The position numbers and the translations under genes were made by a program. A DNA stretch of 24,000 bases. Origin: [Pasteurella] aerogenes (GTDB taxonomy: Bacteria > Pseudomonadota > Gammaproteobacteria > Enterobacterales > Pasteurellaceae). This document shows positions 2-19,494 of the stretch, one piece after another. Position 1 is the stretch's first letter, and the number at the start of each line of letters is the position of its first letter. The notes beneath the pieces were generated by a model, which saw nothing but the letters and a program-made list of their open reading frames with translations, was not told the origin of the DNA and ran no database searches. Where the stretch lies: NCBI GenBank assembly GCA_900637275.1, contig LR134362.1:769884-793883 (forward strand), read 5' to 3'.

Positions 2-3000
2 TTATTACAACGTATCGTTAATGAATTTTGGCGCACGCATTTTTATCATCAATCCGTTGCTGCAACTCGTTATATTTTCGCCCAATGTCGTACGCCGGCG
101 CAATTATTGGATAAAATTGCCTCGCAACTTTCCGGCGCCGCGTTAAAACCGCGTATTGATGCACCGCACTTATTAGACGGTGATATATCTTCTTTTTTAA
201 GCGCAATTAGCCCGTTGTTGTCAACATTAAACGAATTTAAACAAACTTGGTTAAGTGTCGCTCCTGATTTACATGCGCAGATGAAAGAAAAGAAAACTGT
301 TCGTGTGGATTGGTTAGATTCCCGTTTTGCCGAGTTACACTTTTGGGCAAGCGATCCGAATGTGGTTTCAGTACCGGAAAAACTCCATTATTTCACCACG
401 GAGGCAATCAACAAAAGTAAAAATCCCGTGGAACATCCAATATTTGCCAAAGTAGATCAGCTGATTGCTGAAATTGGCACGCAAATTGATACTTTAGAAG
501 CCGTTTTTTTATATCATTGCATTAACGCCATTCGGCAACGTTGGTTTGAATATAAATTAAATCATCGCCAAAAAGGTTTTAACGATTTATTACGGTTGGT
601 GCATGATGCCTTGCGTGGCGAGCAAGGAGAGCGTTTAGCGGAATTAATTCGGCAGCAATTTCCTTTTGCCATGATTGACGAATTTCAGGATACGGACGCG
701 CTACAATATCAAATTTTTGCCACGGTTTATCTCTCACCGCAAGCGAAAGATAGCGGATTTATTATGATCGGCGATCCGAAACAATCCATTTATAAATTTC
801 GCGGTGCCGATATTTTTACTTATCTTAAAGCGGCAAAACAGGCGAAACAACGTTACACGTTAACGGAAAATTGGCGTTCTGGTCAGCCGCTGATTGATTG
901 TGTTAATCGTTTTTTTGATTTTCAGCAACCGCCACCATTTTTATATCAAGATATTCAATTTTTACCGGTGCAGGCGGGGAGTGAGAAAGCCGATTTTGTG
1001 TTGGATGGAAAAATTGAACCGCCCATGCGTTGTTATGTGGGAGAGGCGAAAAATTTTGCCGACTGTTGTGCTAATTCCATTCAGCATTGGCTAAAAAGTG
1101 CGCTGGAAAATCAAGCCAACATCGCAGATGCACCGTTACAAGCCAAAAATATCGCAGTTTTGGTGCGCAATGCGTCACAAGCGGAAATGATTAAGCAAGC
1201 CTTATTAACGCGGGGTATTGCTTCAGTGTATTTATCCGATAAAAGCAATGTGTTTGACAGCCCTGTGGCAATGGATATGCTACAAATTTTGTATGCCTGT
1301 TTTAATCCGTTAAACGAAAGAACCTTGCTACGCGCTATTTCTTGTAGTCTTTTTGCCTTAAGCAGCGAGCAGCTGTACCAAATTCGACAAAATGAAAACC
1401 AATGGGAAATGTGGGTTGAAACTTTTCTTGCTTACCAAAAATTATGGCAGCAACAAGGTGTGTTGGTTATGTTACATTATTTGTTGCAAGAACAACAAAT
1501 TAGCGAAAAATTATTGGCACTGCCGCAAGGGGAACGTAAATTAACGGATTTTTTGCATTTGGCGGAATTATTGCAACAAGCCACCCGTTTAAATGATACG
1601 GAAGCGGCGTTATTACATTGGTTCGAAAAGCAAATTCAAGGCAAAGCACGTTTAACGGAAAATATCCGTTTGGAAAGCGAACGGGAATTGGTCAAAATCG
1701 TGACCATCCATAAATCTAAAGGCTTGGCTTATGATGTGGTGTGGTTACCATTTATTGCCAACGCGTTGATTAATCACAGTGATCCGATTGAAAGCTATTA
1801 TGATAGTGATGCAGATGAAATGTTTTGGGATATGAATGGCACACATGCTGGTGAACGTCTGCAAGAAAAAATGGCGGAAGAATTGCGCTTATTGTACGTT
1901 GCTTTAACTCGAGCGAAATATCAGGTAGTGATGGCGTTGCCGGAACAATTTAAAGATAATTGGAGCGCGTTGTTATATTGCCTTACGCAAGGTCAAATCG
2001 GCGATCAGCCGAAAATTAAAGCTAAATTTGACAAAAGTGCGGTCAATTTAATTGAAGATTTAAAATCTCTGTCAACCAATTTAGCTATTGAGGTACAACC
2101 GATGACTGCTTTAGAAGTCTTGCCGCCTTTATCTGATACTGTACCGGAAGAACTATTGAGTAGCGCGTCATTTCACGGGCATATCCAACGGGATTGGCAA
2201 GTCAGTAGCTTTAGTAAATTATTGGAACAACATCAACGTTTGTTGGCAGAACAAAATGCTGAACGGAGTGGCGAAAGAGCGGTGGAAATGTCGCCAATTT
2301 TCGACGTGGCAAAAGATTATGATCAGCAATTTGCGATTTCAGATGAAATACTTAAAGAAACCGCCGCCGAATTAATATGTGAGGAAGCGGAAATTGTATC
2401 TTATCCTTTGGGTTTTTCTCCCTTCGATTTTCCTCATGGTCCTCATATCGGTAGCGCATTGCACCGTTATTTTGAGAAAAATGAGTTTGCGCAATTTACT
2501 GATGCGGATAAGTTGCACGATTTTTGCCATGGATTAATGTTAAGCGAAGATTGGGTAGCGCCTTTGCAGCAATGGTTTAATGCTATTTTACATACGCCAT
2601 TAATTACCAATGAAAACCTAAGTTTGGAGCAAATTTCGCGTAAAAATGCGTTGCGTGAGTTGCAGTTTTATTTACAAGTCAACCAAAAATTTAGTGCGGA
2701 AAAATTTAACTTGTTACTTGAAAAATATCATCATTTAAAATCTAACCCATTAATTTCTTATGAATTTAATGGAATGTTACGCGGTTTTATCGATTTAGTT
2801 TTTCGTCATCAAGGTAAATATTATATTATGGATTATAAATCCAATTTTTTAGGCAGCCTCGCTGCCGATTATGCTCCATCGGCATTAGCGCAAACGATGT
2901 TAAACAGTCATTATGATTGGCAATATTTGTTGTATTGCGTGGCATTACATCGTTATCTGAAATCGCGCGATCCGGATTATCAATATGAACGCCATTTTGG

Positions 3001-3127
3001 CGGCGTGATTTATGCTTTTTTACGCGGCATGAATGGACAAACTGTTCCGCCAGGGCAAAACGGGCAGGGGATATTTTTTGATAAACCTGACGTACGACTC
3101 ATTGAAGGATTGGAGGAGCTGTTTTAA
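2..3127 (+). CDS. recB: Exodeoxyribonuclease V beta subunit RecB, 5'-truncated by the window edge
   Basis: The frame is open from base 2 with no stop before the listed M at 107, so the N-terminus lies upstream of the window. UvrD-type helicase motifs are present: MIDEFQDTD, GDPKQSIYKFRGADI, TIHKSKGL, LLYVALTRA. The C-terminal RecB-nuclease motif GFIDLVF...YYIMDYKSN is also present. The stop overlaps the recD start (TAATG). Confidence 0.93.
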   Translation, partial: LLQRIVNEFWRTHFYHQSVAATRYIFAQCRTPAQLLDKIASQLSGAALKPRIDAPHLLDGDISSFLSAISPLLSTLNEFKQTWLSVAPDLHAQMKEKKTVRVDWLDSRFAELHFWASDPNVVSVPEKLHYFTTEAINKSKNPVEHPIFAKVDQLIAEIGTQIDTLEAVFLYHCINAIRQRWFEYKLNHRQKGFNDLLRLVHDALRGEQGERLAELIRQQFPFAMIDEFQDTDALQYQIFATVYLSPQAKDSGFIMIGDPKQSIYKFRGADIFTYLKAAKQAKQRYTLTENWRSGQPLIDCVNRFFDFQQPPPFLYQDIQFLPVQAGSEKADFVLDGKIEPPMRCYVGEAKNFADCCANSIQHWLKSALENQANIADAPLQAKNIAVLVRNASQAEMIKQALLTRGIASVYLSDKSNVFDSPVAMDMLQILYACFNPLNERTLLRAISCSLFALSSEQLYQIRQNENQWEMWVETFLAYQKLWQQQGVLVMLHYLLQEQQISEKLLALPQGERKLTDFLHLAELLQQATRLNDTEAALLHWFEKQIQGKARLTENIRLESERELVKIVTIHKSKGLAYDVVWLPFIANALINHSDPIESYYDSDADEMFWDMNGTHAGERLQEKMAEELRLLYVALTRAKYQVVMALPEQFKDNWSALLYCLTQGQIGDQPKIKAKFDKSAVNLIEDLKSLSTNLAIEVQPMTALEVLPPLSDTVPEELLSSASFHGHIQRDWQVSSFSKLLEQHQRLLAEQNAERSGERAVEMSPIFDVAKDYDQQFAISDEILKETAAELICEEAEIVSYPLGFSPFDFPHGPHIGSALHRYFEKNEFAQFTDADKLHDFCHGLMLSEDWVAPLQQWFNAILHTPLITNENLSLEQISRKNALRELQFYLQVNQKFSAEKFNLLLEKYHHLKSNPLISYEFNGMLRGFIDLVFRHQGKYYIMDYKSNFLGSLAADYAPSALAQTMLNSHYDWQYLLYCVALHRYLKSRDPDYQYERHFGGVIYAFLRGMNGQTVPPGQNGQGIFFDKPDVRLIEGLEELF
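163..171 (-). repeat. Hin-type USS core
   Basis: ACCGCACTT, the reverse complement of AAGTGCGGT. Confidence 0.9.
2035..2043 (+). repeat. Hin-type USS core
   Basis: AAGTGCGGT. Confidence 0.9.
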
Positions 3128-5109
3128 TGCTGGCATTACTGCAACAATTACAAGAAAAAAAATTGATTAATGTAGGGGATTATTATTTCGCCAAATTTAT
3201 CGCCAATAAATCGCAGGCGCAAGTTTATCCGTTAGAAAAACAAAATTTAGCGATTTTTTTAGCCGCACTTTGTAGCTACCATTATCAGCAAGGACATACC
3301 TGTATCGATTTATCTGAGTCGGTTCTGTCTGATGCCTTTTATTTGCCGAAAAACGAGGCGCATTATTTAACAGAAATTCAACAAAAAATCAAAGGTTTAC
3401 CAGTCTCGCAATGGCAATCCTTGCTTGCCGATCATGTTGCTTTTACCGACGATCCAGCAAAAAAAAACGCACCTTTTGTATTCCAATATAACGCCTTGTA
3501 TTTTTATCGCGCGTGGCAAGATGAGCAGCGGATTATACAATATTTGCACTATGCAACGACTGATTCCGTTTCCGCTTTAGCATTTCCCATTGAGCAAGTT
3601 GCCCAGATTATGCAGCGTTATTTTCCCCATCAAGATGCCGATAATCGCCCTAAAATTGCAGTGGCAACCGCCATTCGTCAGCCATTTTGTTTGATCACCG
3701 GCGGACCGGGAACCGGAAAAACAACCGCGGTGACCCGTTTATTGTTAGCGTTGCAGGATTTGCATCAAGGCAAGCTGCGCATTAAATTAGCCGCACCGAC
3801 AGGGAAAGCGGCGGCGCGTTTAAAAGAAAGTATGCAAAAAACCTTGGCGTTTTTACAGGATAAAGAAAAAATTCAATTAGATAAATCTATTTTAGATACC
3901 ATTCCAACGGAGGCAGAAACCCTTCATCGTTTACTTGGTGTGTCTTATTTTGAGGAAAACACTAAATACCATGCGCAAAATCCGCTGCCTTTGGATTTAT
4001 TGGTTGTTGATGAAGCCTCAATGATTGATTTAACCCTGATGGCAAAATTATTGGCAGCGCTAAAACCGAGTACCAAATTGATTTTATTAGGGGATAAAGA
4101 TCAATTGGCATCGGTGGAAGCGGGCGCGATTTTGGCAGAATTGGGGCAGTTTTCCGAACGCGGGTATCGCCCAAAACAAGCGGATTATTTGCGTCAGGTT
4201 GTCGGAGGGAATATTGCTGAATGTATGGATGGTAGGGCAATTGGTGACAGTTTATGTCATTTACTGGTAAGTCGGCGTTTTGGTGATAAACCGTACATTG
4301 CGCAATTGGCGAACTTGATCAACCATCAGCAAAGTAAAGCCGCTTGGCAATTATTAACACAGGCGACTGAAAATGAAATTCATTTGGTCGATTTTGACGG
4401 TTTAAGCGACCGATCATCAGAACTTTCTACCAAGGAAAATATAGCAGTTTGTGTGAATGCGGTAGTTGAAAGTGCGGTGCATTTTTATCACAATTATTTG
4501 CAGATACTTCAAGAAGTAGTTGCGCAACATTTGCCGATTTCCGAGCATTTACCACGTATTTTTGCCGCCTTCAATTCTGTGCGATTTTTAACCGCACTTC
4601 GTGTCGGTGAATTGGGCAGCGAATATTTAAATCAAGCGATTGCCGAGCGTTTGCGTCAAGTAGGATTGGTTAATTTTCAACACAGCCGCGACAGTTACTT
4701 GGGTAAACCTGTAATGATTATGCAAAATGACAGCAATACTCGCTTATCAAACGGGGACATTGGGCTTTATATTATGGAACGTGAGGGCGATAAAATTCGC
4801 GGTAAATACTGGTTTGAAAATGGAAAAAGCGAATTAGCCAGTCGCATTCCAAGCCATGAACCGGCATTCGTGATGACGGTACATAAATCTCAAGGATCGG
4901 AATTTGATCATACCTTTTTGGTTTTACCGACGGAACCAAATCCAGTATTAAGTAAGGAATTAGTTTATACCGGTGTCACGCGGGCGAAAAGCCAATTGAC
5001 GATTTTTGCTAACCGGTTAAGTTGGGAAAGCGCAGTGAATAAACAAACCACGCGCCAAAGTCGGCTAGGGCAGGGATTAGTTTTGGCTGAATTGGCGGAA
5101 AAAGAGTGA
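3127..5109 (+). CDS. recD: Exodeoxyribonuclease V alpha subunit RecD
   Basis: 660 aa with Walker A GGPGTGKTT, Walker B LLVVDEASMID, and SF1 motifs TVHKSQGSEF and YTGVTRAK. The start is translationally coupled to the recB stop. Confidence 0.93.
   Translation: MLALLQQLQEKKLINVGDYYFAKFIANKSQAQVYPLEKQNLAIFLAALCSYHYQQGHTCIDLSESVLSDAFYLPKNEAHYLTEIQQKIKGLPVSQWQSLLADHVAFTDDPAKKNAPFVFQYNALYFYRAWQDEQRIIQYLHYATTDSVSALAFPIEQVAQIMQRYFPHQDADNRPKIAVATAIRQPFCLITGGPGTGKTTAVTRLLLALQDLHQGKLRIKLAAPTGKAAARLKESMQKTLAFLQDKEKIQLDKSILDTIPTEAETLHRLLGVSYFEENTKYHAQNPLPLDLLVVDEASMIDLTLMAKLLAALKPSTKLILLGDKDQLASVEAGAILAELGQFSERGYRPKQADYLRQVVGGNIAECMDGRAIGDSLCHLLVSRRFGDKPYIAQLANLINHQQSKAAWQLLTQATENEIHLVDFDGLSDRSSELSTKENIAVCVNAVVESAVHFYHNYLQILQEVVAQHLPISEHLPRIFAAFNSVRFLTALRVGELGSEYLNQAIAERLRQVGLVNFQHSRDSYLGKPVMIMQNDSNTRLSNGDIGLYIMEREGDKIRGKYWFENGKSELASRIPSHEPAFVMTVHKSQGSEFDHTFLVLPTEPNPVLSKELVYTGVTRAKSQLTIFANRLSWESAVNKQTTRQSRLGQGLVLAELAEKE
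4470..4478 (+). repeat. Hin-type USS core
   Basis: AAGTGCGGT. Confidence 0.9.
4591..4599 (-). repeat. Hin-type USS core
   Basis: ACCGCACTT. Confidence 0.9.
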
Positions 5110-5187
5110 ACCCAAGGTCTAACAATAAAAGCGCGGTGATTTTTTAATGCGTTTTTTCCTATTGATGGCGAAATTATCATATTTTTG

Positions 5188-5196
5188 ACCGCACTT
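5188..5196 (-). repeat. Hin-type USS core
   Basis: ACCGCACTT, in the recD-rplM spacer. A one-mismatch copy, AAGCGCGGT, lies about 50 nt upstream. Confidence 0.9.
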
Positions 5197-5287
5197 TGGT
5201 TGTTTTTGGCTCGCTGCTGGGCTGATATATCAATTATTGCAACATCTTTCTCATTGGAAAGCCGATAAAATTAATTGTGAATAAAAA

Positions 5288-5316
5288 TTGGCTTTTGGAT
5301 AAAACTCTTGTATAAT
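5288..5316 (+). promoter_or_regulatory. Candidate sigma70 promoter of the rplM-rpsI operon
   Basis: TTGGCT (5288-5293), a 17-nt spacer, then a perfect TATAAT (5311-5316). This leaves a leader of about 135 nt before the rplM ATG, which has no obvious Shine-Dalgarno sequence. Confidence 0.55.
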
Positions 5317-5457
5317 CTTGCGACCCTGTAAATGTGTTGGATTCCCACCACGCATTATTTTGTCGAGATCGCACTCGAAGGGGTGAAGATTAAGATAACT
5401 GGTTGTGTCTGAATTTTAGGCACTGGGTATTAATATTATTTTATTGGTAATTAATTA

Positions 5458-5886
5458 ATGAAAACTTTTGTAGCAAAACCAGAAACGGTTAAACGCGACT
5501 GGTATGTAGTAGATGCGACAGGTAAAACTTTAGGTCGTTTAGCTACTGAATTAGCACGCCGCTTACGTGGTAAACATAAAGCTGAATATACTCCGCACGT
5601 TGACACTGGTGATTACATCATCGTTATTAACGCGGATAAAGTTGCTGTAACTGGCAAAAAAGAAAGCGATAAAATTTACTACTGGCACACAGGCTATGTA
5701 GGTGGTATCAAACAAGCGACTTTCGCAGAAATGATCCAACGTCGTCCAGAAGCTGTGATTGAGATTGCGGTTAAAGGTATGTTGCCAAAAGGCCCATTAG
5801 GTCGTGCAATGTTCCGTAAATTGAAAGTGTATGCCGGTTCAACTCATGAACACGCAGCACAACAACCACAAGTTTTAGATATTTAA
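5458..5886 (+). CDS. rplM: 50S ribosomal protein L13
   Basis: 142 aa beginning [41 protein letters not shown], the typical L13 sequence and length. Confidence 0.97.
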
Positions 5887-5902
5887 TCACGGGGTTAGGA
5901 AA

Positions 5903-6295
5903 ATGGCAGAGAATCAAAACTACGGCACAGGTCGCCGCAAAAGCTCTTCAGCTCGTGTATTTATCAAACCGGGCAGTGGTAAAATCACTATCAACCAACG
6001 TGAATTAGACGTGTATTTCGGTCGCGAAACTTCTCGCATGATCGTGCGTCAACCGTTAGAATTGGTTGGATTAACTGATAAATTAGACCTATACGTTACT
6101 GTAAAAGGTGGCGGTATTTCAGGTCAAGCGGGTGCAATCCGTCACGGTATCACTCGTGCATTGATGGAATACGATGAAACTCTACGTCCTGCATTGCGTG
6201 CAGCGGGCTTTGTTACCCGTGATGCTCGTCGTGTTGAACGTAAAAAAGTGGGTTTACACAAAGCACGTCGTCGTCCACAATACTCCAAACGTTAG
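5903..6295 (+). CDS. rpsI: 30S ribosomal protein S9
   Basis: 130 aa ending in the universally conserved ...[12 protein letters not shown] lies upstream of the ATG. The G of the TAG stop codon (6293-6295) is also the first base of the intron GTGCG. Confidence 0.97.
6271..6287 (+). repeat. 17-nt direct repeat, copy 1 (rpsI 3' end)
   Basis: TCGTCCACAATACTCCA, identical to 7496-7512. Confidence 0.95.
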
Positions 6296-7309
6296 TGCGA
6301 CAAGTTGTCGTACTTATGGCAATAATTCCTTGTATATCAAGGAGTTATTGCTGGAAATGGGTGGTATTTTATCACCTATTTCCAACTTTTCAAGTACTCC
6401 TTTGGGAGTACTTGGGAAGTCAGACAAGAAAAGGGGCGTTGCCCAAGATCTTGTTCTAAGTTGGGAAAATAATCTCCAACTTTATGCGGTAATAAGGTAT
6501 GGTCTTCACTCTGATGTACTTAGTTTCCTTCGTCAGAAGCTAAGAAGAGTAAGAAAGCAAGACCCGTTATCGAAAGACATAACTACCGTTAGTCGCCTAT
6601 ATATAGAGTGACTTGGGTCAAATCCAAAACGTTATGTTGTTCATAAAGAATGATTAAAAGAACCTACTATAAATAAAGTCCCCAAGATTGCCTCAGCACT
6701 CAGAAAAGGCATCAGAACTAAGACGTGGAATATCTTAGGGAGGGAGTGCTCACTTTACATACATTTTCACATTCGCAATCTACGATAATTTGTAGAATGC
6801 TCCTCAATAGTGAATAAAAACACTAAGGATAAACCTTGTTTATTCGTTTTTATGAGCTAGGGATAATTATACCTTAAATTCTCGTTGAAATCACCTTTAA
6901 CACTCACATTAGCTAGGGTTAGCTACCTTCGTCTATTGGATAGGTTATAGGCTATTTACGGAAAATTTGGATATAAACAAAGCTACTTAGTAGCAGAAGT
7001 GAATTTACTTTGTAAAGCTCGGACTTATTTATGCAGTATAGGAAACTAACTTAGTAAGTAGGCGTAAGCTATTATCATCATTGTTGCAATAGGATTATTA
7101 GAAGATATAAGCAGTACAAATAATCTTATGAGGCAACCTGTTATATGGCTAACAGTAGCCTAGGAAAAGTGCATCACTGGCAACGGTGTTGTGTGGAGCA
7201 TTCTGACAATGTACTCCCCGAGAGGGTCAATCGTTATCGTGAGATACGATTGAGATAGGATGAACAACACATCCTAGAGAGGCTAGGCTGGATAGAAAGA
7301 TAAACGTAA
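6295..7309 (+). ncRNA. ORF-free, hairpin-dense 5' unit of the intron, either an extra structured RNA module or a partial intron copy
   Basis: There is no credible ORF. Perfect or near-perfect hairpins lie at 6319-6351 (14 bp), 6353-6383 (11 bp), 6391-6414 (10 bp) and 7230-7250 (GUGA loop). Two U-G/G-U pairs (6326/6344 and 6359/6377) are valid only in plus-strand RNA. Confidence 0.5.
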
Positions 7310-7320
7310 GTGAACAGTTG
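7302..7320 (+). repeat. Degenerate second copy of the exon/intron junction
   Basis: AAACGTAA|GTGAACAGTTG aligns with the real junction AAACGTTA|GTGCGACAAGTTG (6287-6307). Of 21 aligned columns, 17 are identical, 2 are mismatches and 2 are 1-nt gaps. Confidence 0.6.
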
Positions 7321-7495
7321 ATAAACCTCGTTAGAAGAAAGAGCCTACGGTTGTTATTGGCTTAGACCAAAATGGTATGCAGTCGGATATTCTTTTTGAC
7401 GTTGAGAATACGCCATCAAAGTACTGCCGGGGAACAGACTGTATCTTCACTATCCTTGTGATGATAATGGAACTTGGTAAGCCTGTATTTCTGCC

Positions 7496-7512
7496 TCGTC
7501 CACAATACTCCA
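7496..7512 (+). repeat. 17-nt direct repeat, copy 2 (inside the intron)
   Basis: TCGTCCACAATACTCCA is an exact copy of 6271-6287. Its last 5 nt form the left arm of a 9-bp hairpin (7508-7516 with 7531-7539). Confidence 0.95.
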
Positions 7513-8071
7513 TACTGAAACATACTTATAAGTATGGAGAAGAAGAGGAGTAAGAAGGAAAGGCAAGTAAAGCGTAAGCGATACTATTGGGAATGCAGGT
7601 AAGGGAGGTTGGAAAAAGCGAATGCTATGCTGTAATGGCATAGATAGGGTGTGAAATATAACCTAACTCGAAAGGGTGCAGACTTCCAACTGGTCTTTCA
7701 TCGTAAGATGAATAGCAATTCCTTTGAGGGTTATTAGTGTTAGTTTGCCCCATAAAGGCAATTTTAAAAGTTTTCTCGCCTTTTATGGGGAGGGAACAAA
7801 CTAATAACGAATGTAAACAAATTAAAGAAAGCAGGCGTTGAGCCTGTCGGTAGGGCAACTTACTCTACTGTCAATGGTTTGGGAATAACCACTACAATAA
7901 CGGAAATTTCCTACCACTCAACGCCCGTACTCTTTAACCCAATTGGTTACAAGAGGGGTTAAAACTATCGGTATACGGTAGTTCCTCTGTAACATTGCGA
8001 TTGTTTACAAATTGAGGAATTTACCCAACTACCGAGACCTTTTAACTTACCTTGTAATATCAGAGGTAGGT

Positions 8072-9796
8072 ATGAAAGAGCGTAAGCATTATACTGAAAA
8101 GTTAGCTTGCAATCCAGCGACCTCGCACATTTCTAAATGGCATTATGTCAATTGGCATAAAGCGGAAACGTATGTGAAAGGAATGCAAATTCGGATTGCG
8201 AAGGCAACACAGGAAGGCAATTGGCGTAAGGTTAAAAACTTACAACGAATGCTGACCCACTCACATTACGCCAAATTAGTGGCAGTAAAGAGAGTGACTG
8301 AAAATCAAGGTAAGCGAACAAGTGGTGTCGATAAAGTGCTTTGGGATACTCCAGAGACAAAGTGGCGAGCCGCACTATCATTGACGGAAAAAGGATATAA
8401 ACCAAGTCCACTTAGACGAGTGTATATTCCCAAATCGAATGGAAAGAAACGTCCGTTAGGTATTCCAACAATGCGAGATAGAGCAATGCAAGCCCTTTAT
8501 TTATTGGCATTACAACCTGTGGCAGAAACAACCGCAGATAAGGGTTCATATGGGTTTAGACTAAACCGCTCAACGGTTGATGCTATCTCTCATATACACC
8601 AAATTTATTCGCATAAAGGCAAGAAAACCAATCAACCTGTTGAATGGGTGCTTGATGCAGATATCGCAGGTTGTTTTGACCACATAAACCACGATTGGCT
8701 GTTAAAGCATATTCCGATGAATAAACGGATATTGCGAAAATGGCTAAAATCAGGTGTAGTGGAATTTGGACGGTTGAAACGGACAGAGGAAGGTACACCA
8801 CAAGGTGGGATTATCTCGCCAACGCTTGCAAATATGGCATTAGATGGGTTAGAAAAACTGCTTGAAACTCATTTTGGGGAAAAAGGCAGTCGGACAATTC
8901 GAGAAAATAAGACTTACTTAGTACGATATGCGGATGACTTTATCATATCAGGTAAAACGAAAGAATTGCTTGAAAATCAAGTTATCCCACTTATCCAGAA
9001 CTTTCTGAATGAACGAGGTCTATCCTTATCAGCAGAAAAGACAAAAGTGGTACATATTGAGGAAGGTTTTGATTTTCTAGGTTGGAATGTGAGACGTTTT
9101 CGAGGAAAGATACTGAACAGACCAAGTCAAAAGAATGTGAAAGCATTCTATAGCAAGGTCAGGACGGTGATTTCTAAAATGAAAATGGCGAAACAAGAAG
9201 ACCTAATAAGGGTACTCAATCCGATGTTACGAGGTTGGGCAAATTATCATCGAAGCCAAGTGGCAAGCAAGGCATTTGGACGAATGGACGCTATTGTTTG
9301 GAAAGCCTTATGGAAATGGTGTAGACGAAGACATTCCAATAAAGGTATAACGTGGATTAGAAATAAATATTTCTATGATACGGATAAACGTCGTTGGATA
9401 TTTGGCTCAGTTTATACCACACCGAAAGGGGAAACGAAACCAATGGAATTATTCTATTGCGGCTATGTTAAAATCAAACGACACGTCAAAATCAAGTCTG
9501 AATATAATCCGTTTTTACCTGAATGGGAGTTATACGGAGAAAAACTGAGCCAAGAACGTCTGTATGATGAACAGTCGCACAGACGACAATGGCAGGCACT
9601 GTATAAAGACCAACGTGGAAAATGTGCATTATGTGGGTTACCAATCACCAAAGAGACAGGCTGGCACGACCATCATATTGTGTATAGAATGTCTGGAGGC
9701 AGTGATGCGTTAAGCAATCGTTGTTTGGTTCACCCGAATTGCCATATGAAAATTCATGCCTTGAATTTGAATGTTGTGAAACCGACTATTTCATAG
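8072..9796 (+). CDS. Group II intron-encoded protein (reverse transcriptase, maturase X domain, HNH endonuclease domain)
   Basis: RT motifs DADIAGCFDHINH, TPQGGIISPTLANMALDGLE and RYADDFIISG. X/maturase motif LRGWANYHR. C-terminal HNH CALCG...HDHHIVYRMSGG...HPNCHMKIH. The ATG at 8072 with GAGGTAGG upstream is preferred over the in-frame TTG at 8012. Confidence 0.92.
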   Translation: MKERKHYTEKLACNPATSHISKWHYVNWHKAETYVKGMQIRIAKATQEGNWRKVKNLQRMLTHSHYAKLVAVKRVTENQGKRTSGVDKVLWDTPETKWRAALSLTEKGYKPSPLRRVYIPKSNGKKRPLGIPTMRDRAMQALYLLALQPVAETTADKGSYGFRLNRSTVDAISHIHQIYSHKGKKTNQPVEWVLDADIAGCFDHINHDWLLKHIPMNKRILRKWLKSGVVEFGRLKRTEEGTPQGGIISPTLANMALDGLEKLLETHFGEKGSRTIRENKTYLVRYADDFIISGKTKELLENQVIPLIQNFLNERGLSLSAEKTKVVHIEEGFDFLGWNVRRFRGKILNRPSQKNVKAFYSKVRTVISKMKMAKQEDLIRVLNPMLRGWANYHRSQVASKAFGRMDAIVWKALWKWCRRRHSNKGITWIRNKYFYDTDKRRWIFGSVYTTPKGETKPMELFYCGYVKIKRHVKIKSEYNPFLPEWELYGEKLSQERLYDEQSHRRQWQALYKDQRGKCALCGLPITKETGWHDHHIVYRMSGGSDALSNRCLVHPNCHMKIHALNLNVVKPTIS

Positions 9797-9811
9797 TTAA
9801 TAGAAAGGCTT

Positions 9812-9845
9812 GAGCTGTATGCAGAGAAATTTGCTTGTACAGTTC
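9812..9845 (+). ncRNA. Group II intron domain V
   Basis: GAGCTGTATGCAGAGAAATTTGCTTGTACAGTTC is 34 nt, has the AGC catalytic triad at positions 2-4, a two-part helix with a 2-nt bulge, and a GAAA tetraloop. Confidence 0.9.
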
Positions 9846-9848
9846 TTA

Positions 9849-9886
9849 GGGGGCGAAGAGATAGAAATATCTTTTTGCTACCCGAC
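9849..9886 (+). ncRNA. Group II intron domain VI with branch-point A and the 3' splice site
   Basis: GGGGGCGAAGAGATA-GAAA-TATCTTTTTGCTACCC forms a long helix with a GAAA loop. The bulged A at 9880 is followed by CCCGAC, so the intron ends in AC at 9886. Confidence 0.8.
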
Positions 9887-9910
9887 ATTTTTTATTTTCG
9901 TTTATTACAG

Positions 9911-9941
9911 ATTGCAAGCCTTTTGGCTTGCAATTTTTTTT
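9911..9941 (+). terminator. Rho-independent terminator of the rplM-rpsI operon, now downstream of the intron
   Basis: ATTGCAAGCC-TTTT-GGCTTGCAAT forms a 10-bp stem followed by a T8 run. Confidence 0.85.
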
Positions 9942-15220: not shown

Positions 15221-15763
15221 ATGAAAAAATCAGTATTGGCTGTGTTAGTGTTAGGTGCAACTCTATCTTTAAGCGCTTGTTTCGATAAAGACAGCAAAAC
15301 TGCTGAACAAGTCGACAACGCGAAAGCAAGCATGACCGAAGCAAAAGATGCAGTAGCTAAAGCAGCAACCGACGTTAAAGATGCAACCGTACAAGCGGCT
15401 TCTGATGTGAAAGATAACGTCGCTGCAAAAGCAACAGAAATGAAAGATGCAGCAGTACAAAAAGTTGAAGACGTGAAATCAGCTGTAAATGAAAAAGTAA
15501 ATGCATTAACTGAAAAAGCTGCTGAAGTGAAAGATGCAGCAGCTGAAAAAGCTACTGAAGTGAAAGATGCAGCAGCTGAAAAAGCTACTGAAGTGAAAGA
15601 TGCAGCAGCTGAAAAAGCTACTGAAGTGAAAGACGCAGCAGCTGAAAAAGCTACTGAAGCAAAAGATGCAGCAGCTGAAAAAGCTACTGAAGCAAAAGAT
15701 GCAGCAATGGACAAAGTTAACCAAGCAGCAGATCAAGTAAAACAAGCTACAGAAACTAAATAA
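15221..15763 (+). CDS. Lipoprotein built from 11-residue amphipathic (LEA-like) repeats
   Basis: The signal peptide MKKSVLAVLVLGATLSLSAC carries the lipobox LSAC. The mature part is almost entirely degenerate 11-mers (xKDAAAEKATE). AGGAG lies upstream of the ATG. Confidence 0.85.
   Translation: MKKSVLAVLVLGATLSLSACFDKDSKTAEQVDNAKASMTEAKDAVAKAATDVKDATVQAASDVKDNVAAKATEMKDAAVQKVEDVKSAVNEKVNALTEKAAEVKDAAAEKATEVKDAAAEKATEVKDAAAEKATEVKDAAAEKATEAKDAAAEKATEAKDAAMDKVNQAADQVKQATETK
15512..15709 (+). repeat. Six tandem 33-bp in-frame repeats inside the lipoprotein gene
   Basis: The unit is GAAAAAGCTACTGAAGTGAAAGATGCAGCAGCT. Units 2 and 3 are identical and the others differ by 1-3 nt. Confidence 0.95.
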
Positions 15764-15874: not shown

Positions 15875-16240
15875 GGGGCTGATTCTGGATTCGACGGGAT
15901 TAGCGAAGCCCAAGGTGCAGGTCGAGGTGCGGTAGGCCTCGTAAACAAACCGCAAAAAAATAGTCGCAAACGACGAACAATACGCTTTAGCAGCTTAATA
16001 ACCTGCTCATAGCCTTCGCTCCCTAGCTTCCGCTCGTAAGACGGGGATAAAGCGGAGTCAACTTAAACGAGATCGTGTGGACGCTTAGGCTTGGAGATCG
16101 AAACACTAAATTGAATCAAGCTAGCTTATTGGTTGCGTGTCTGTCCGCTGGCAGTAAGTGAAATTAAAGACGAGACTAAACCTGTAGTGCTGAAGGTAGA
16201 GTAATTTCGGACGGGGGTTCAACTCCCCCCAGCTCCACCA
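15875..16240 (+). ncRNA. ssrA: tmRNA (SsrA)
   Basis: Starts GGGGCTGATTCTGGATTCGACGGGATT and ends GGACGGGGGTTCAACTCCCCCCAGCTCCACCA. The tag ORF at 15966-15998 reads GCA AAC GAC GAA CAA TAC GCT TTA GCA GCT TAA, encoding ANDEQYALAA. Confidence 0.97.
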
Positions 16241-19295: not shown

Positions 19296-19348
19296 TTTAT
19301 GCTCCTAGGATTTTAGTTATTGCCACTTAGTAGGTGGACAGGGTTCAA

Positions 19349-19494
19349 CTACCGATCCTAGTCGGCGGAGCTTATTTCCCTTTCGGGTATTGTATTTGGC
19401 TCTCTCACCCCGTCCATAACTTGGCAATACCTAAAATTTAGGCATAAAAAAACCGCTTTTATTGTCGGAGCGAGAAACCGACTAGGATTTGTAG
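19349..19494 (-). promoter_or_regulatory. Long-range inverted repeat in the leader of the Bro-N gene
   Basis: Plus-strand CTACCGATCCTAGTCGG (19349-19365) matches the reverse complement of CCGACTAGGATTTGTAG (19478-19494), giving 15 of 17 complementary positions, 11 of them contiguous. The same ATCCTAG heptamer recurs at the Shine-Dalgarno region (19305-19311). Confidence 0.5.

Follow-up and report, generated by a model that had tools for sequence, protein, structure and literature searches.

A copy of the rpsI 3' end within domain II of a stop-codon group II intron tracks the host exon and hints at an additional guide for the target DNA

Results

A group II intron inserted in the stop codon of rpsI in [Pasteurella] aerogenes carries within its domain II a copy of the end of its own 5' exon, and this copy is a real, conserved and target-tracking feature for which we propose a mechanism. 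Coordinates refer to the window, the whole 24,000-nt stretch of DNA that was analyzed, and relatives of the intron were gathered from genomes, metagenomes and assemblies. That the copy tracks the host gene suggests a further guide, so far undescribed, by which the target DNA is found or opened. From comparison of the sequences, we consider it possible, at a probability of roughly 45%, that the copy acts as an accessory guide in target sense and pairs with the bottom DNA strand once this is displaced in retrohoming.

The host intron

By its features, the window intron (6295..9886) is a stop-codon-targeting element of the known Avi.groEL type, group IIB1/CL1, with rpsI as its host gene, and it is present as a single copy in the genome. 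The original prediction had described it as a group II intron in the stop codon of rpsI, and this was borne out by the Rfam domains, the intron ends and the encoded protein. Rfam models matched domain I (RF02012 at 7137-7282) and domains V-VI (RF00029 at 9810-9886), and the intron has a GUGYG start, domains I-VI, a bulged A and an AY end. The intron-encoded protein, which matched TIGR04416 with 375 bits (cutoff 300) and had 6ME0 as its best structural match (E 8.7e-186), is an RT-maturase-HNH protein related to those of EcI5 and T.el4h, an assignment in which the Pfam domains of its relatives were included. The insertion interrupts the stop codon of a housekeeping gene (TA/G in rpsI), and approximately 780 nt intervene between the first helix and the conserved core of the intron. 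The rpsI stop-codon insertion, the intact RT-maturase-HNH protein and these extra 5' bases are all features of the start/stop-codon-specialized IIB1 clade (PMC12584367).

5903..6295, plus strand: rpsI (30S ribosomal protein S9); stop codon TAG completed by intron base 1, TAA after splicing
6295..9886, plus strand: group IIB1/CL1 intron, 3592 nt, splitting the rpsI stop codon behind its second base
6307..7085 (ends approximate), plus strand: large 5'-subterminal insertion, subdomain Ia, a hallmark of the start/stop-codon clade (PMC12584367)
7263..7269, plus strand: alpha loop, complementary to alpha' at 7350-7355, assigned from complementarity in several relatives
7607..7690, plus strand: domain III, from sequence and fold
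8072..9796, plus strand: intron-encoded protein, 574 aa, RT (YADD)-maturase-HNH, intact
9810..9886, plus strand: domains V and VI (RF00029 match)
9909..9936, plus strand: terminator-like hairpin in the 3' exon (pattern match only)

Several side observations were made on the insertion site and its surroundings. Self-folding is possible for the first 18 bases of the intron, which are followed by three long near-perfect hairpins that open subdomain Ia (6295-6420); self-complementary 5' intron ends similar to that of the window also occur in relatives. When the window was compared with L001, L003 and L111, insertion at the rpsI stop codon was seen in two registers, behind TA (as in the window, 6294/6295) or behind TAA, and in the TA-type register EBS1 is displaced by one base and EBS2 is cut to four pairs. 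Elsewhere, the window contains 33-nt tandem repeats in a 180-aa ORF (15338-15750), a tmRNA gene (15875-16240) and a match to sRNA-Xcc1 on the minus strand (19329-19414).

Exon-binding sites

The exon-binding sites EBS1, EBS2 and EBS2a were all located in domain I and are complementary to the 5' exon, as is characteristic of IIB1 introns.

6282..6286, plus strand: IBS2a (6282) and IBS2 (6283-6286), in a probable register (PMC8643678)
6289..6294, plus strand: IBS1, the complement of 7397-7402, covarying with the target in relatives
7332..7337, plus strand: EBS2a (7332) and EBS2 (7334-7337), domain I; three of the four EBS2 bases pair with IBS2
7397..7402, plus strand: EBS1, domain I; 6/6 pairs, one of them G-U

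The register of EBS2 and EBS2a fits most of several dozen other target sites, and it places EBS2a just 5' of EBS2, as published (PMC8643678). The location of these elements bears on the suggestion, made in the original prediction, that UGGAG in the arm downstream of the copy is an EBS2-like sequence held by the copy. This did not stand, since EBS2a and EBS2 are at 7332 and 7334-7337, UGGAG occurs in that arm in just one of 13 relatives, and the arm is variable. The segment 7531-7539 was likewise rejected as EBS2 because it lies in domain II without conservation and another segment fits the definition of EBS2. A search for a partner of the copy elsewhere within the introns revealed no conserved one, the best duplexes being mostly no better than those of shuffled sequences and having no common position; stronger duplexes were found in the domain IV region at three loci and were not common to other loci. 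The idea that the copy offsets a weak EBS2 was also set aside, as internal EBS2 mismatches occur in copy-less introns at the ETF-ubiquinone oxidoreductase (ETF-QO) gene and Gilliamella introns with copies have a perfect EBS2.

The exon copy and its fold

The exon segment and its copy are identical over 17 nt, exactly and in the same sense, and the exon segment ends 7 nt before the 5' splice site (6294/6295), as originally described.

6271..6287, plus strand: copied exon segment (-24 to -8 from the splice site)
7496..7512, plus strand: exon copy (target mimic), 5' strand of the IIa extension
7481..7600, plus strand: domain II; basal stems with compensatory changes across 13 introns
7493-7564, plus strand: hairpin IIa with a 66-nt extension that is absent from relatives at other genes
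7521..7536, plus strand: apical hairpin of the extension, standing where other relatives keep an IBS1-like part
7547..7559, plus strand: purine-rich, variable right arm, pairing with the copy in part (7506-7511 with 7547-7552, 7499-7501 with 7557-7559)

The earlier argument that a 17-mer match is not expected by chance in 24 kb held only in part: the window has a second, unrelated 17-nt repeat (21862/22774), but the position and the conservation of the copy are beyond chance. The expected number of such exon-end/intron matches was approximately 2e-6, and the longest intron match among 2000 draws of control 50-mers from elsewhere in the window was 14 nt. The segment is a same-sense exon mimic and not an EBS, as had been proposed, and it is partly paired by a downstream arm in every relative.

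The copy had been assigned to domain I; that domain closes at 7471-7476 (pairing with 6301-6306), and the copy is within domain II, in the loop of hairpin IIa and at the start of the 66-nt extension. In relatives at other genes hairpin IIa is a short stem-loop. The predicted 9-bp hairpin is present in the sequence as a 9-nt complementarity between 7508-7516 and 7531-7539, but in the folded domain its pair probability is 0.001 and forcing the helix costs 4.8 kcal/mol. Preferred pairs are 7506-7511 with 7547-7552 and 7531-7536 with 7521-7526 (p>0.85). The right arm varies in both length and sequence, with a pairwise identity of 0.50 versus 0.82 for the copy, and its pairing amounts to -3 to -12 kcal/mol versus -20 to -29 kcal/mol for a perfect duplex. 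Copy bases that are predicted to be unpaired are also invariant.

The copy tracks the host exon

Over 16 positions in 19 introns the copy differed from its own exon at 21 of 304 comparisons, a value to be set against a mean of 57.8 and a minimum of 30 in 100,000 permutations, in which related introns are not independent. In these introns, 24–64% of fourfold-degenerate sites are changed relative to the window. We counted approximately seven to eight coupled changes of copy and exon by eye on the protein tree. A Tyr or a Phe codon is present in 10 and 9 introns, respectively, and the copy matches the exon in all of them. Similarly, a Ser change between TCN and AGC is matched by the copy in Gilliamella, Gln CAA versus CAG is matched twice (in enterobacteria and in P. 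testudinis), and an Arg third base (CGT/CGC) particular to P. testudinis is matched in its copy. The Ser third base is coupled repeatedly, and that of the window matches its own genus. The RNA segment covaries with its target in the same sense.

There were exceptions to this tracking. At the Pro third base the copy matches in none of the five introns whose exon differs from A, and one Gilliamella copy misses a Gln CAG change. Position -7 is always a non-matching pyrimidine in introns that are inserted after the full stop codon and keep the IBS1-like end. The wobble asymmetry of the mismatches, which are mostly C to U, fits pairing to a complement and is non-discriminating. EBS2 and the exon disagree in 11 cases, and the copy sides with the exon in eight of these, with EBS2 in one and with neither in two.

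Distribution and ancestry

The copy is found at the same place in approximately 20 rpsI-site introns from Pasteurellaceae, Gilliamella, E. coli and Salmonella, that is, in three families, with intron proteins 63–92% identical. In a midpoint-rooted protein tree that included groEL-site introns and had no outgroup such as EcI5, the copy is most simply ancestral to a 41-member clade (support 100/100), and the path from the window to the E. coli copy is approximately 0.8 amino-acid changes per site. This tree is only a guide because some introns are mosaics; for example, L111 and L213 share domain II and not their EBSs. An alternative in the original prediction, that the repeat is a scar of a single recombination event, is excluded by an ancestry this deep together with the 24–64% of fourfold sites that have changed.

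The prediction had also raised the question of whether homologs at different sites carry copies of their own 5' exons. The rpsI-site introns do so across hosts, but lineages retargeted to other genes have no copy. It is cleanly absent from both retargeted sister lineages, namely the gapA and tuf clade and an Orbaceae clade at enolase and a glycyl-radical gene. It is also missing from two lineages at rpsI or with rpsI-type EBSs (L112; L221 with L242), so that the same-site homologs without the 17-mer that would have counted against the prediction do in part exist, and the copy is dispensable. The L221-type intron, without a copy, has spread to a second site: in E. coli, L222 lies in an amino-acid permease gene, a non-rpsI site that matches both EBS1 and EBS2.

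Besides rpsI, hosts of the stop-codon clade are gapA, tuf, enolase, groEL, a glycyl-radical enzyme and ETF-QO (loci L113-L128, L006, L007, L230-L234, L008, L074 and L132-L135 for the hosts other than groEL). The copy is not general to this clade, as among 126 distinct introns only the rpsI-site ones and one other scored >13. The other high scorer (L008, 18/20 nt) has its match on the alpha-loop hairpin, where relatives lack it, and we take it as a chance match that indicates the size such matches can reach. Loose pattern searches of Orbaceae, of the class and of viral contigs gave mostly chance matches and one new informative locus (L305). Overall, the comparisons show that the copy arose once, has long been retained, tracks the host exon, pairs loosely with a variable arm and is lost on retargeting.

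More distant relatives, with 54–58% protein identity, were found in Burkholderiaceae and Pseudomonadaceae (L010-L069, L137-L205). A TAnnnT motif starting at -16 or -17, often TATAAT-like, is present at 32 of 34 distinct non-stop-codon sites versus 2 of 18 stop-codon sites. Judging from this motif, these introns appear to insert 10–11 nt downstream of a sigma-70 -10 box, near the transcription start, and the motif could instead be one recognized by the protein.

Discussion

A proposed bottom-strand guide

The copy is kept in target sense, including bases that no EBS reads and bases unpaired in the RNA, which favors its being an accessory guide to the bottom strand. We propose that an rpsI-targeting ancestor acquired approximately 24 nt of 5' exon sequence in its domain IIa loop and that the copy has since been held matched to the end of the host rpsI. 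In retrohoming, EBS1, EBS2 and EBS2a would occupy the top strand (-1 to about -14), and the copy would leave its weak hairpin and base-pair from about -24 to -8 with the displaced bottom strand, thereby stopping the duplex from re-closing or extending the bubble upstream. The RNP would read both strands by base pairing, with the guide being accessory and dispensable. To our knowledge, all known group II RNA-DNA contacts are with the top strand.

Against such a guide are the four losses of the copy, its incomplete tracking and the marginal energetics. The hybrid was calculated at -18.7 kcal/mol, whereas melting of the extra DNA would cost 12.3 and opening of the hairpin as much as 14, so supercoiling, transcription or protein would have to help the putative guide. 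In favor of the guide, the prevention of re-annealing of the DNA strands is a recognized problem for IIB1 RNPs (PMC8643678).

Other explanations for the copy

The copy might instead act as DNA, as a second docking or homing site for self-insertion (in the formation of twintrons or the invasion of occupied loci) or as an RNP decoy. We consider this unlikely, even with the evidence of L226 in its favor. In this P. testudinis locus (1499-8700, complete genome) the domain IIa copy has itself been invaded, and a further intron, 98.9% identical, sits precisely behind its IBS1-like end.

L226 self-twintron: outer intron from 1499; inner intron 2740-6324; outer intron resumes at 6325

The insertion indicates that the copy is usable for homing. 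The outer bases just past the junction differ from those of the inner intron, which disrupts the apical hairpin in which the IBS1-like part is otherwise buried. One Gilliamella copy, furthermore, tracks a change in IBS1. Against this, one twintron was seen in more than 20 loci, and tandem introns inserted at one stop codon independently of the copy are commoner (L003, L007, L129, L212 and L219; the L212 pair being different variants, one after TA and the other after TAA). In the sub-lineage of the window (window, L005, L111, L212 and L213) the IBS1-like part is gone, apparently replaced by a 7-nt tandem duplication, and the right arms are diverging, yet -24 to -8 is kept, which makes self-insertion more likely a side effect of the copy than its purpose. 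Elsewhere the IBS1-like part is buried in a hairpin with the fixed -7 mismatch, which looks like avoidance, and the copy tracks positions that EBS2 mis-pairs.

It is just as improbable, in our view, that the copy has no function and is refreshed from the exon by recurrent gene conversion or by template switching in retrohoming, surviving because its fold is harmless. This would account for synonymous tracking without selection on each base, for the imperfections of the tracking and for the four losses. However, conversion should also have reached the Pro third base and position -7, whose neighbors on either side match, and neither was copied; P. testudinis has two matching positions with a non-matching one between them. 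A very high frequency would also be needed for a homology of 17–25 nt (7% mismatch versus 24–64% at fourfold sites), and the retargeted lineages show clean deletion rather than decay.

A slightly more doubtful possibility is that the copy fills EBS2 and EBS2a (and EBS1 where the IBS1-like part stays) in the free lariat, limiting the binding or reopening of the abundant rpsI mRNA; this is the nearest form of the EBS2-sequestering idea of the first reading. Spliced introns can bind and reopen ligated-exon mRNA via EBS-IBS pairing, lowering host-gene expression (PMC6003770), and the copy holds the equivalents of IBS2a, IBS2 and often IBS1. Yet it follows the exon and not EBS2 where the two differ (8:1:2), its best-conserved part (-23 to -15) is outside any EBS, and copies are lacking from relatives in the tuf, gapA and groEL mRNAs, which are equally abundant.

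Least probable of all is that the copy titrates a host factor reading the rpsI 3' end or serves a late step (holding of the bottom-strand flap, cDNA joining), as we know of no antisense RNA or RNA-binding protein recognizing that sequence, although a factor of this kind would fit the rpsI specificity and the tracking of the host sequence, and the late-step version relies on the same complementarity as the bottom-strand guide.

Significance and comparison with known systems

How group II RNPs open double-stranded DNA and hold it open is an acknowledged open question (PMC8643678). The copy is a natural and easily deleted module, and the model of an RNP reading both strands is directly testable in E. 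coli, whose introns at the same rpsI site include members with (L224) and without (L221) it. Should it prove to be a guide, grafting it onto targetrons could raise their efficiency or specificity; even if it does not, a usable homing-site copy kept across three families needs explaining. In the literature searched, we found no description of such an exon copy or of rpsI as a host, and older papers may mention it. The intron class is known; the new part is the host-tracking exon copy.

The nearest described introns are Avi.groEL and EcKTE56.groEL (PMC12584367, citing Michel et al. 2007), which share with the window intron an IIB1 ribozyme, an endonuclease-bearing CL1 protein, a large subdomain Ia and a stop codon split between its second and third bases (UAA to UAG). 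Tandem copies, reported for EcKTE56.groEL (PMC12584367), are likewise present among the relatives gathered here. The host gene differs, being groEL for those introns and rpsI here, and the two groEL-site introns compared here (L130, L236) have a short IIa and no exon copy. Domain II is nowhere mentioned in PMC12584367. EcI5 and Th.e.I3/T.el4h (6ME0, 6MEC; PMC8643678) have the closest solved protein and the same layout of EBS1, EBS2 and EBS2a as the window intron. The RNA-DNA pairings described for them all involve domain I and the top strand, and recognition upstream of -14 is attributed to protein.

L226 resembles group II twintrons and self-invading introns (PMC7049729, PMC4649490) in having an intron inside its own copy. 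Its site is a maintained host-exon copy in domain IIa rather than an incidental stretch of intron. Nested introns also occur in Methanosarcina. Finally, the proposed bottom-strand guide would work like part of the IS110 bridge RNA, an analogy of mechanism only, in which one target-sense segment pairs with the bottom strand on the left and another segment pairs with the top strand on the right (PMC11208160). The target-binding loop of that RNA was found by covariation (PMC11208160). The window intron is not a bridge system, which comprises a DEDD recombinase and a bispecific bridge RNA, as its encoded protein is a group II reverse transcriptase. In IS110 the recombinase is unrelated and both guides are essential and lie in one loop, whereas the putative guide described here would be an optional addition to a retroelement.
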